NCBI GenBank assembly: GCA_043800705.1 | Contig: JAZDMS010000001.1 | Span: 57,826 to 121,825, forward strand | Length of the DNA: 64,000 bases | Direction of reading: 5' to 3' | From: Candidatus Altiarchaeota archaeon | Lineage (GTDB): Archaea > Altiarchaeota > Altiarchaeia > IMC4 > SCGC-AAA252-I15 | Part shown: positions 60,426 through 62,351 of the stretch, piece by piece | Layout: the number at the start of each line of letters is the position of its first letter | How positions within the stretch are numbered: the first letter of the stretch is position 1 | Translations under genes and position numbers: made by a program | Notes under the pieces: generated by a model | Databases searched by the model: none | What the model was told of the DNA's origin: nothing | Seen by the model: the letters and a program-made list of their open reading frames with translations, nothing else

Positions 60426-60920
60426 CTAACCTCTCAGTATCGCTGTCGCACCCGTCCTCGCTATCTCCTTGATGCCCATCGTGCGCATGATGTTAAGGAA
60501 CGCGTTTATCTTCCTGGTGTCGCCGACTATCTCGACCGACATTGACTTTGGGCTGACGTCGACGATGTTACCGCGAAAGACGTCGGCGTATTGTATGACC
60601 TGCGCCTTCTGCTTCTCGGTGGGTGCGTTGACCTTGACGATGCACAGCTCCCTGCAGACGCAGTCCTCTGGAGCCACGTCGCCGACCTTGATGACGTTGA
60701 CGAGCTTGTTCATCTGCTTGCTGATCTGCTCCAAGACCTTGTCGTCGCCCCTGGTCACGATCGTCATCCTGGCGATGTCAGGGTGGTCGGTCGCCCCGAC
60801 GGTTATGCTTTCGATGTTGAACTTCCTTCTTGCGAAAAGCGAGGCTATACGCTGAAGGACTCCGGGCTGATGCTCTACCATGGCGGTGAAAACGTGTATC
60901 CTCTCATCCCCTTTTGCCAT
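60426..60920 (-). CDS. ilvH: Acetolactate synthase small (regulatory) subunit
   Basis: PGVLQRIASLFARRKFNIESITVG, KQMNKLVNV, RELC..KV, EIARTG. Confidence 0.96.
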   Translation of the reverse strand: MAKGDERIHVFTAMVEHQPGVLQRIASLFARRKFNIESITVGATDHPDIARMTIVTRGDDKVLEQISKQMNKLVNVIKVGDVAPEDCVCRELCIVKVNAPTEKQKAQVIQYADVFRGNIVDVSPKSMSVEIVGDTRKINAFLNIMRTMGIKEIARTGATAILRG

Positions 60921-60999
60921 GCCAAATTATAGGATTTCGACGAATATATATGCGGCTTTAAGACACCTGATTTTTACGGTTCCTAAGCCTTATTTTCAC

Positions 61000-61495
61000 C
61001 TACGAGCTAGACTTTCAGAGCCCTTATAGTCTTTACTGCGTCGGGCTCCTTTCCAGGTTCGGCTGGCAGGACTATCCTGTCCATGCCACGATGCTCCTTC
61101 CCGAATTCTAAGGCGTCCGCGAGATATTGCCTGTCTGATACCGCCAATGCCTCGGATATCTGTTCCGGGGACGGTGCGGCGGTGAACGTGAACGATCCCT
61201 AGAAGTCGCCCTCCTGAATCTCGCCCGAGCATACACTCAAACGGTGATTCAAGAGCTTGAATCATTCGCGGGCCGCAAGGATCTCCTGACAAGGCGAATA
61301 CCCTCTCCTGATCATACCAAGGCGCTCCTCGCGACTTTTCAAGTGAAGAACCCTCCAGCAGATATGCGGGGTTCTTTGATGACGAATCTGCGGACTCTTC
61401 AAGCATGAATGCCCGTCGGGGGCATTCATACACTCGACAGACCACGAATGCCTTTCATCCCCGCTGCAAAGCAGCGGGGTATGCTGTCTGAGCGA
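61000..61495 (-). ncRNA. Candidate large structured non-coding RNA or structured mobile remnant (unclassified)
   Basis: At least nine visible stems in about 500 nt of intergenic DNA; IS200/IS605-end-like hairpin at 61459-61479; strand tentative from G.U pairs. Confidence 0.5.
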
Positions 61496-61562
61496 AACAC
61501 ACGCGGCGCTGCCATTTTTTAATGCGATGTTGCTAGTTATAGATACATAAAAACACAAAAAA

Positions 61563-62351
61563 ATGGCACAAGAACCCTATCCGGAACCCGGCGAACTGGT
61601 GCTGGGAACCGTGAAGAACATCTTCAATCAGGGCGCATTCATAGACTTGGACGAATACCCCGGCAAGCGGGGGATGCTGCACCTCACCGAGATAAGCCTA
61701 AAATGGGTAAGGAACATCCGCGACTATGTAAAAGAGGAGCAGAAAGTCGTCCTACTCGTGCTTCGGACCGATCCCTCCAGAGGCCACATCGACCTTTCCC
61801 TCCGCCGGGTGAACGACGCCCAAAGGAAGCAGAAGCTTCAGCAGGTGAAACAGAAGCAGCGCGCAACGAAGCTCCTGGAAATGGTCGCACAAGAGCTTAA
61901 ACTCCAACCCACTGACATAAGCGCACCGGTGTCGACAGCGCTTGCAGAATACGAATCCGTATATCTGGGGCTGGAGGCCATAGCAGCAGACAATTCACTT
62001 ATCAACAAACTGCCTCTCGAGGAAAAAATCCGCAAAAAACTCCTCGAACTTGTGATAAAGAGCATAAAACCGCCGCTAGTCGAAGTCACAGGCTACGTGG
62101 AATTCCACAGCTTCGAATCCGACGGCATAAAAACCGTAAAAAAGGCCCTCGAAGAGGTATCGGGCCACAAACAGAAGGATACCCTCCTGGAACTTACGTA
62201 TATTTCGGCACCCCTCTACCGCGTGAAGGTCACGGCATCGGACTACAAGACTGCCGAGAAAGTCCTAAGAAACGCAGTAGACCAGGGAATAACCTACATC
62301 GAATCCAAGCACGGAACAGGCGAATTCCACCGCGAACTCGAGGCCAAATGA
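61563..62351 (+). CDS. eif2a: Translation initiation factor aIF2 alpha
   Basis: PEPGELV, LDEY, WVRNIRDY, IDLSLRRV, SAPLYR. Confidence 0.97.
   Translation: MAQEPYPEPGELVLGTVKNIFNQGAFIDLDEYPGKRGMLHLTEISLKWVRNIRDYVKEEQKVVLLVLRTDPSRGHIDLSLRRVNDAQRKQKLQQVKQKQRATKLLEMVAQELKLQPTDISAPVSTALAEYESVYLGLEAIAADNSLINKLPLEEKIRKKLLELVIKSIKPPLVEVTGYVEFHSFESDGIKTVKKALEEVSGHKQKDTLLELTYISAPLYRVKVTASDYKTAEKVLRNAVDQGITYIESKHGTGEFHRELEAK

Follow-up and report, generated by a model that had tools for sequence, protein, structure and literature searches.

What occupies the gap between the divergent genes ilvH and eif2a in this archaeon, and how did it come to lie there? In the 64,000-nucleotide (nt) stretch of Candidatus Altiarchaeota DNA analysed here (part of contig JAZDMS010000001.1; hereafter the window, whose coordinates we use throughout), the two genes stand 642 nt apart, and an earlier note made from the sequence had read most of the gap as a densely structured element of ~500 nt, a candidate large noncoding RNA. 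We propose instead that the region is a lineage-specific expansion of the gap that holds an immobile, PATE-like fossil derived from an IS200 element (61338 to ~61510) together with an orphan spacer, and we put the probability of this explanation at about 0.7. PATEs are a published category of gene-less elements that have near-terminal palindromes like those of IS200/IS605-type transposons and are without inverted terminal repeats (PMC3119063).

Folding energies locate the structure. Folded as RNA and compared with dinucleotide shuffles, 61000-61495 is more stable than its controls on both strands (z = -3.16 plus, -5.14 minus; 0 of 100 shuffles as good on each). Taken alone, 61338-61500 reaches z = -5.04 on the minus and -4.86 on the plus strand, with 0 of 200 shuffles as good on either, and 60960-61337 gives z = -2.37 on the minus strand (1 of 100 shuffles as good) and -0.67 on the plus strand (26 of 100). 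Dense structure is thus confined to ~165 nt, and the other ~380 nt are weakly structured, on the minus strand only; the ~500-nt element of the note beats its shuffles, but the signal comes from 61338-61500. All nine stems that had been listed do exist. Six are perfect Watson-Crick helices: 61459-61467/61471-61479 (9 bp), 61405-61414/61420-61429 (10 bp), 61346-61353/61369-61376 (8 bp), 61203-61209/61331-61337 (7 bp), 61245-61253/61256-61264 (9 bp) and 61018-61023/61043-61048 (6 bp). The other three (61431-61440/61484-61494, 61222-61229/61236-61243 and 61065-61072/61079-61087) are imperfect, and it is chiefly when read on the minus strand that their non-canonical pairs turn into G.U, much as the note had it. 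The hexamers offered there as possible pseudoknots are also in place (GCAGAT 61358/ATCTGC 61386 and ACCGCC 61140/GGCGGT 61178). Its count of three TCAGGAG heptamers on the minus strand is right, with eight in the whole window, but by a rough estimate the expectation for a triple 7-mer somewhere in 640 nt is ~0.16, so that this is not rare.

The structured part belongs to a dispersed family. In a sample of 61 genomes from the phylum Altiarchaeota, a DNA search of the gap matched only pieces of its eif2a-proximal third, mainly in a genome of the same genus (G001), where two loci align with 61338-61500 over ~170 nt; similarity to one G001 copy extends ~10 nt past 61500, to ~61510. A covariance model built from three sequences (the window and two G001 loci; R1) finds 17 places in 10 of the 61 genomes at E<=0.01, and its sole match in the window is 61338-61500. 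We refer to this stretch as the module, and its parts are as follows.

61338-61500, minus strand (= transposon top strand): proposed PATE-like, non-autonomous IS200/IS605-derived element; R1 score 145.3 bits, homologous copies, covariation, fold z of about -5
61459-61479, minus strand: left-end-type near-terminal palindrome; perfect 9-bp stem, 3-nt loop, lying 21-42 nt inside the R1 match as counted from its 5' end
61431-61440 with 61484-61494, minus strand: outer imperfect helix that encloses the left-end palindrome
61405-61429, minus strand: 10-bp perfect hairpin, at the site of the first of two adjacent inner hairpins
61346-61376, minus strand: right-end-type palindrome, degraded here and 8 nt from the 3' end, then the conserved 3' tail of the family (to 61338)

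The pairing is maintained by compensatory change. In an alignment of 18 R1 matches from 16 loci, 91.2% of the cells pair, whereas shuffles give 72.1% and slid partners 33-49%, and both members have changed in 33 of the 43 pairs; none of 500 shuffles gets as far on any measure. In the outer and left-end helices (numbers 1 and 2 of the family structure), pairing stands at 85% and 93.5%, and 11 of the 12 pairs carry double changes. On the minus strand G.T cells outnumber A.C cells by 37 to 10, an excess which favours the minus strand as the one that folds. Homologues and covariation are found only for these 163 nt, while the remaining ~385 nt are without a homologue in the 60 other genomes, and the single large RNA of the note is not supported.

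Copies of the family are modular. A constant 5' end of ~20 nt leads into the first palindrome, inner hairpins follow in varying number, and the 3' palindrome, again constant, has a tail of ~10 nt; versions of ~50 nt have a single palindrome only. The first inner hairpin occupies the same place in other copies with a wholly different sequence. In those copies the 3' palindrome is intact and agrees in type with the right end of the IS200-like elements of G042, a genome of the same order, whereas the R1 alignment puts two non-standard pairs in the 3' helix of the window copy. Likewise, where 6 of 8 copies have TGAT just ahead of the conserved 5' end, the window has TGTT. We find no terminal inverted repeats beyond chance: in three copies, the first 25 nt match the reverse complement of the last 25 nt at 9, 11 and 9 of 25 positions, against shuffle 95th percentiles of 11, 11 and 12. 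At 163 nt the element is too short for a transposase gene.

The family also has a preferred setting. The exact 5' motif occurs seven times in 4 of the 49 genomes of the order (a reversed control pattern, 0 times), and in all seven cases a same-strand open reading frame (ORF) of at least 100 codons ends 0-326 nt upstream. In three of the seven, the TGA at the start of the element is the in-frame stop of that ORF, after 216, 393 and 310 open codons.

1500-1502, element strand, of loci L097 (G020:C30), L099 (G001:C30) and L100 (G001:C70): TGA at the element start overlapping the stop codon of the upstream ORF

Thus some genes owe their ends to the element or its target site, or share them with it. 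The copies are solitary, and their neighbours are housekeeping genes. A pattern scan through one genome per species returned at least 120 stretches, almost all by chance; 2 of the 80 examined match R1, and both are from Candidatus Altiarchaeota. No empty site was found for the full copies: the flanks of the G001 copies are non-syntenic in the window's own genome, and a search of four genomes of the genus for an orthologue of a flanking gene found none. By inspection, the flanks of five copies have no direct repeat. A comparison with integron attC sites, made by eye only, shows that the motifs fit the core sites poorly. A possible second, decayed family copy in the window at 61183-61265 was set aside, its R1 match (1.8 bits, E 0.24) being not significant.

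Several smaller observations concern the family. In the window's own genome (L059, C37:11011-11101) and in G001 (L064, C70:5978-6083), the same convergent gene has a family or IS-type palindrome at its 3' end, and its stop codon is inside the tail of the element in the former and ~10 nt beyond the element in the latter; a compensated A-T/T-A swap sets the two palindromes apart. We considered orthologous retention of these two copies and did not adopt it, given that tails and stop-codon distances differ, so that independent insertion is possible. In addition, the two adjacent inner hairpins (window 61380-61429; loci L052, L053, L054, L055, L057 and L061) behave as a unit of their own, with perfect 8-9 bp stems and 3-4 nt loops in a nearly two-fold symmetric conserved frame. 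This unit is found within family copies, twice in one G001 copy, and also without IS-type ends in G023, G008, G003, G045 and G005; its stem sequence is different in every copy, and the pairing is always perfect. Possibly it is a small mobile repeat in its own right that nests in the family, by analogy with the SMR elements of Haloquadratum, which target PATEs (PMC3119063).

The ends of the module connect the family to IS200-like transposons. Positions 61459-61482 are 96% identical over 23-24 nt to seven sites in G042, all of which lie 69-91 nt upstream of a Y1 tnpA match and on its sense strand, which corresponds to the minus strand of the window. Six of the G042 elements are identical from a common left boundary and stand in different flanks, an open tnpA frame of 156 residues was read in one, and the genome has 17 matches to the Y1 transposase domain (PF01797), which suggests that the family is currently or recently active. 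Judged by this identity, the hairpin at 61459-61479 is the left-end hairpin of a live IS200-like family, which bears out the resemblance to IS200/IS605 subterminal ends that the note had pointed to. The IS200-like elements of two other genomes, G020 and G023, have the same left-end layout, with an outer stem, ATAC, a GC-rich inner hairpin and, after it, a purine-rich loop; their right ends consist of ATAC, a hairpin and a T-rich tail. The window element resembles the tnpA-only elements of G042, G020 and G023 in its near-identical left-end hairpin, in the ATAC before the palindromes, in the arrangement of outer stem and inner hairpin at the left end, and in the right-end palindrome with a T-rich tail of ~10 nt. 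It differs from them in having no tnpA or remnant of it, and in that full models of their left and right ends are not significant on it. With its filters off, a model of IS200 left ends (R2) matches 61454-61484 locally (11.6 bits, E 0.047, the E-values of these models being rough). A model of the right ends (R3) recovers solitary palindromes in G042, G020 and the window's own genome. The own genome also has an orphan IS200 left-end-like sequence (L003:1779-1859, contig C35; R2 41.3 bits, E 6e-8) in ~700 nt without long ORFs, with an IS-type palindrome 270 nt away and no tnpA.

The enzyme itself was looked for in the genome and its relatives. Y1_Tnp (PF01797) is present in 21 of the 61 genomes of the sample and in 0 of the 5 of this genus, the window's own included, and tblastn with the TnpA of four relatives returned nothing from the own genome. 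Nor is a TnpA remnant detectable in 60900-61600 (best E 0.23). No ORF of the region has a Pfam match, neither PF01797 nor the TnpB domain PF07282 was found in the own genome, and the element does not qualify as an autonomous IS200/IS605 insertion sequence. As a separate observation, single in-frame TAG codons interrupt two otherwise intact matches, the eif2a homologue in G023:C16 and a tnpA in G020:C36, and could reflect sequencing error, a pseudogene or stop-codon read-through. Given that searches of the genome and the genus turned up no TnpA, that the right-end palindrome has decayed, and that TGTT replaces TGAT, the window copy is most likely an immobile fossil.

We propose the following origin for the module, on the analogy of the IS200/IS605 mechanism, which we infer would apply to this family. 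Read 5' to 3' on the minus strand, it would comprise a left-end-type palindrome in an outer helix, two inner hairpins, and a degraded right-end-type palindrome with its 3' tail. In transposons of this kind, the Y1 transposase recognises the end hairpins of the top strand and cuts beside them. IS200/IS605 elements move by way of a single-stranded DNA intermediate, with TnpA as the catalyst and a short target beside the left end as the guide, as set out in PMC3119063 and PMC10055086. By the same scheme, the top strand of a family member would fold into end hairpins as single-stranded DNA, a TnpA supplied in trans would recognise these and cut beside them, and the excised strand would be pasted next to a short target. 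The TGAT ahead of most copies speaks for applying this scheme to the family, as do the overlaps with stop codons, which a target containing TGA, combined with survival of insertions at gene ends only, would yield. At the present locus, ilvH would be expressed from a proximal TATA-like box of its own, and minus-strand transcription from the old shared promoter would read through the element.

We would place the element in the published PATE category; the new class that had been suggested as an option is not supported. It shares with the PATEs of haloarchaea, in the description of Dyall-Smith et al. 2011 (PMC3119063), the absence of genes and of inverted terminal repeats, IS200/IS605-like palindromes near both ends, a distance from start to palindrome that is longer on the 5' side than on the 3' side, variation among copies, forms of ~50 nt that consist of the termini only and have a single fused palindrome, and other small repeats nested within. 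In contrast to those described there, it is found in another phylum, Altiarchaeota, at 1-5 copies per genome versus 177-194 per Haloquadratum genome, and its autonomous relatives are tnpA-only and IS200-like, whereas those in haloarchaea mostly carry tnpB (IS1341-type) (PMC3119063). Bacterial REP and BIME sequences are short structured palindromes related to IS200/IS605 ends and mobilised by RAYT (Y1) transposases. Like the present family, they are intergenic, often stand just after genes and have a fixed orientation, a likeness that we take as resemblance only; copy number is low here, and no RAYT-type gene was found, no search having been aimed at one.

Several points weigh against a transposon fossil. 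The full R2 model with default filters finds no match to the module at E<=10 and the filters-off match is marginal, while R3 gives the window copy no match at E<=1. The genus with the most full-length copies shows no transposase, although incomplete assemblies often miss repeats (the own assembly is 87.55% complete, and assemblies overall 70-92%). With low copy numbers (1-5 per genome) and copies that diverge while their stems stay compensated, the family fits structural selection better than recent transposition. Because the covariation alignment was fitted to the structure of the model, its pair counts are biased towards that structure; the margin over the controls is large nonetheless. Finally, the window copy has no empty site from which to read its exact ends or a target duplication, and the explanation does not account for the other ~385 nt.

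The proposed fossil sits in a gap that is itself anomalous, with the following features around it. The gene assignments of the note are confirmed by Pfam.

60426-60920, minus strand: ilvH, acetolactate synthase small subunit; ORF with Pfam ALS_ss_C (94.3 bits) and ACT_AHAS_ss (86.5 bits); downstream neighbour on the strand of the element
60921-60952, minus strand: putative promoter segment close to ilvH, whose TATA-like run at 60943-60951 stands ~22 nt ahead of the ATG
60953-61337, strand not applicable: orphan spacer, lineage-specific DNA, modestly structured, no family membership
61007-61147, minus strand: candidate 46-codon ORF with a TTG start, inside a 63-codon open frame; status doubtful
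61510-61515, minus strand: TGCCAT, where relatives have the ilvH start codon directly beside the shared promoter
61516-61562, strand not applicable: putative promoter segment, ancestral and shared by ilvH and eif2a; its core, A/T-rich and TATA-like, lies at ~61534-61545
61563-62351, plus strand: eif2a (aIF2 alpha); ORF with Pfam EIF_2_alpha (81 bits) and S1 (47.2 bits); divergent neighbour

The aIF2-alpha gene was found in 29 of 31 genomes searched, with ilvH as its divergent neighbour in 24 relatives. The distance between the two genes is 52-208 nt in 23 of the 24 and 443 nt in one, compared with 643 nt here by the same measure, which is the distance between tblastn alignment ends and is approximate, some alignments beginning a few residues in. 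By this comparison, ~590 nt is added to a normally very short divergent promoter region, in this lineage only. The gap region is single-copy in the window's own genome, and R1 matches only here among 35 syntenic ilvH-eif2a loci and in none of the 34 others. In L019, L021, L022 and L023 the genes are only ~50-70 nt apart, with an A/T-rich, partly palindromic core near the middle; these short gaps may represent one shared TATA region for two leaderless, oppositely directed genes. A segment like 61516-61562 makes up nearly the entire gap in several relatives, and in several members of the genus the ilvH start codon abuts it. In the window this segment, conserved beside eif2a in same-genus relatives and in L065, is kept only on the eif2a side, and the TGCCAT at 61510-61515 would be a relic of the junction.

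The closest relative found, metagenome contig L065 (IlvH 96% and aIF2-alpha 87% identical), helps to order the events. Its gap of 178 nt has both flanks in common with the window, the ilvH side and the eif2a-side promoter, and the middles are not alignable. Since flanks are shared and the middle is not, an older event would have split ilvH from the shared promoter and given rise to the proximal TATA-like box, and ~560 nt of the middle would be peculiar to this genome. The ~30 nt beside ilvH, including the TATA-like run, align with L065, with a spacing to the ATG of ~22-23 nt in both, so that the TATA box that the note had given to ilvH is conserved and ilvH seems to have a proximal promoter of its own. 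TGCCA occurs twice in tandem at the ilvH start (60915-60924) and once at the far edge of the expansion (61510-61514), a repetition that may be junction microhomology or chance. Its reading as a target duplication of 5-6 nt that would flank all 590 nt is weakened by the left junction, which is common to L065 despite the different middle. Alignment of the gap against shuffles reveals no spare copies of the ilvH or eif2a ends beyond chance. One resemblance, between 61417-61434 (3' arm of the 10-bp hairpin, with the bases that follow) and the eif2a codons at 61631-61647 (15 of 17 identical), scores 13 where the shuffle 95th percentile is 12 and the maximum 15, and is probably due to chance.

The same gap has taken up a hairpin elsewhere in the genus. 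In G003 (L020:2316-2382), R3 finds a solitary hairpin of the IS200 right-end type (22.4 bits, E 6e-4) in the ilvH-eif2a gap, on the eif2a-sense strand and so opposite to the window element, with a T-rich tail that enters the conserved promoter segment. Judging from its type and strand, this looks like an independent colonisation, in which case the ilvH-eif2a promoter gap has been colonised at least twice. Other gaps are also expanded, in L026 (G017; 208 nt), L044 (G022; 443 nt) and L045 (G002; 163 nt), and contain repeated hairpin units of their own; there R1 has no match, and R3 none at E<=1.

How else could the module and its surroundings be explained? A functional structured RNA acting in cis, here a leader or insulator made from the old promoter at ~61515 and elsewhere a stabiliser in the 3' untranslated region, a terminator or a processing element, is unlikely in our judgement. 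It would account for stems maintained by compensatory changes across genera, for the surplus of G.U over A.C on the minus strand, for the position of all seven exact-motif copies behind a same-strand ORF with a shared TGA in three, and for copies kept in a genus without transposase; read-through would also be possible, as the minus strand reads without any run of at least five T between 61515 and ilvH. Yet IS200/IS605 ends that fold into hairpins as top-strand DNA would be expected to show the same strand asymmetry and compensated pairing, the stems are for the most part perfect Watson-Crick palindromes and fold as well on one strand as on the other (z -5.0 and -4.9), and the ilvH copy breaks the 3'-end pattern, its upstream neighbour being divergent. 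Absent from the same locus in 34 relatives, the module is in any case no conserved regulator of ilvH or eif2a. We are similarly doubtful of a combined explanation, in which a genus that has lost the transposase has kept a module derived from IS200 ends as a strand-specific element of gene borders, providing stop codons and 3'-end or insulating RNA structure, and the module nests a mobile or recombination unit of a new kind, namely the pair of inner hairpins in its two-fold symmetric frame, which also stands alone in other genera. If this were true, the ilvH copy would mark a shared bidirectional promoter that has been re-wired.

The note had further suggested an orphan omega RNA or HEARO-like guide RNA for TnpB or IscB, which we regard as extremely improbable. 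Omega RNAs end at the right end of their element, whereas the structure in the window begins at the left end. The element is indeed related to the IS200/IS605 superfamily, the Rfam HEARO family and the other omega RNAs are likewise structured end sequences of such elements, and PATEs often encode omega RNAs according to PMC10055086. Nevertheless, the module matches no Rfam family, HEARO included, either in the window at gathering score, where the only hits are two tRNAs elsewhere, or in 60850-61650 at E<=10, where two sub-threshold snoRNA-like matches appear; the list of families that the note had wanted checked (HEARO, OLE, ROOL, GOLLD, RNase P and SRP) thus yields no known hit. The TnpB zinc-ribbon domain PF07282 is found in 0 of 6 genomes (the own genome, G001, G003, G020, G023 and G027; IscB-specific domains were not searched for), related autonomous elements carry tnpA only, and the proximity to tnpB that the note had asked about gives way to housekeeping neighbours. 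Very improbable too is an ordinary intergenic region with stems formed by chance. The behaviour of 60960-61337 would suit it, since this part does not beat its shuffles on the plus strand and does so only mildly on the minus, but the fold of the module (z of about -5, with none of its 200 shuffles as good) and its R1 homologues with covariation refute it for 61338-61500, and 23 of the 24 relatives have gaps several times shorter than this one.

A coding origin for part of the gap, as a small gene or remnant on the minus strand at 61010-61198 (46-63 codons), is improbable. The 63-codon frame has a codon-usage log-odds of +0.28 per codon, above the shifted-frame 95th percentile (0.00) and near the mean for real genes (0.34), a score that is only suggestive after several frames and windows were tried. 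A search of 1.84 billion representative proteins returned a 46-residue gene call of 98% identity, a repeat-like match and no other homologue; there is no Pfam match, and the TTG start is without convincing ribosome-binding spacing. A 149-codon ORF that spans the spacer was rejected as non-coding (-0.30 per codon). The spacer as a whole has no DNA homologue in the 60 other genomes of the sample beyond two short matches (31 nt, E 6e-4; 23 nt, E 0.0096), no paralogue in the own genome by DNA or six-frame pieces, and no Pfam match above cut-off, and a decayed ilvB or tnpA remnant is unsupported by the Pfam and TnpA searches. We therefore leave 60953-61337 as an orphan spacer with a small chance of holding a short gene.

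Based on these data, the candidate large noncoding RNA is removed from this locus and a documented explanation, the PATE-like fossil, takes its place. The family would be the first of PATE type described in Altiarchaeota, a phylum that to our knowledge has no cultured, genetically tractable members, and it comes with its likely parents, the IS200-like elements. The covariance models permit such elements to be masked, so that strong folding is not taken for new RNA genes. For the biology of the lineage, the finding would mean that its very short divergent promoter regions and its gene ends are repeatedly colonised by transposon-end hairpins, which bears on how promoters and gene borders are rearranged.

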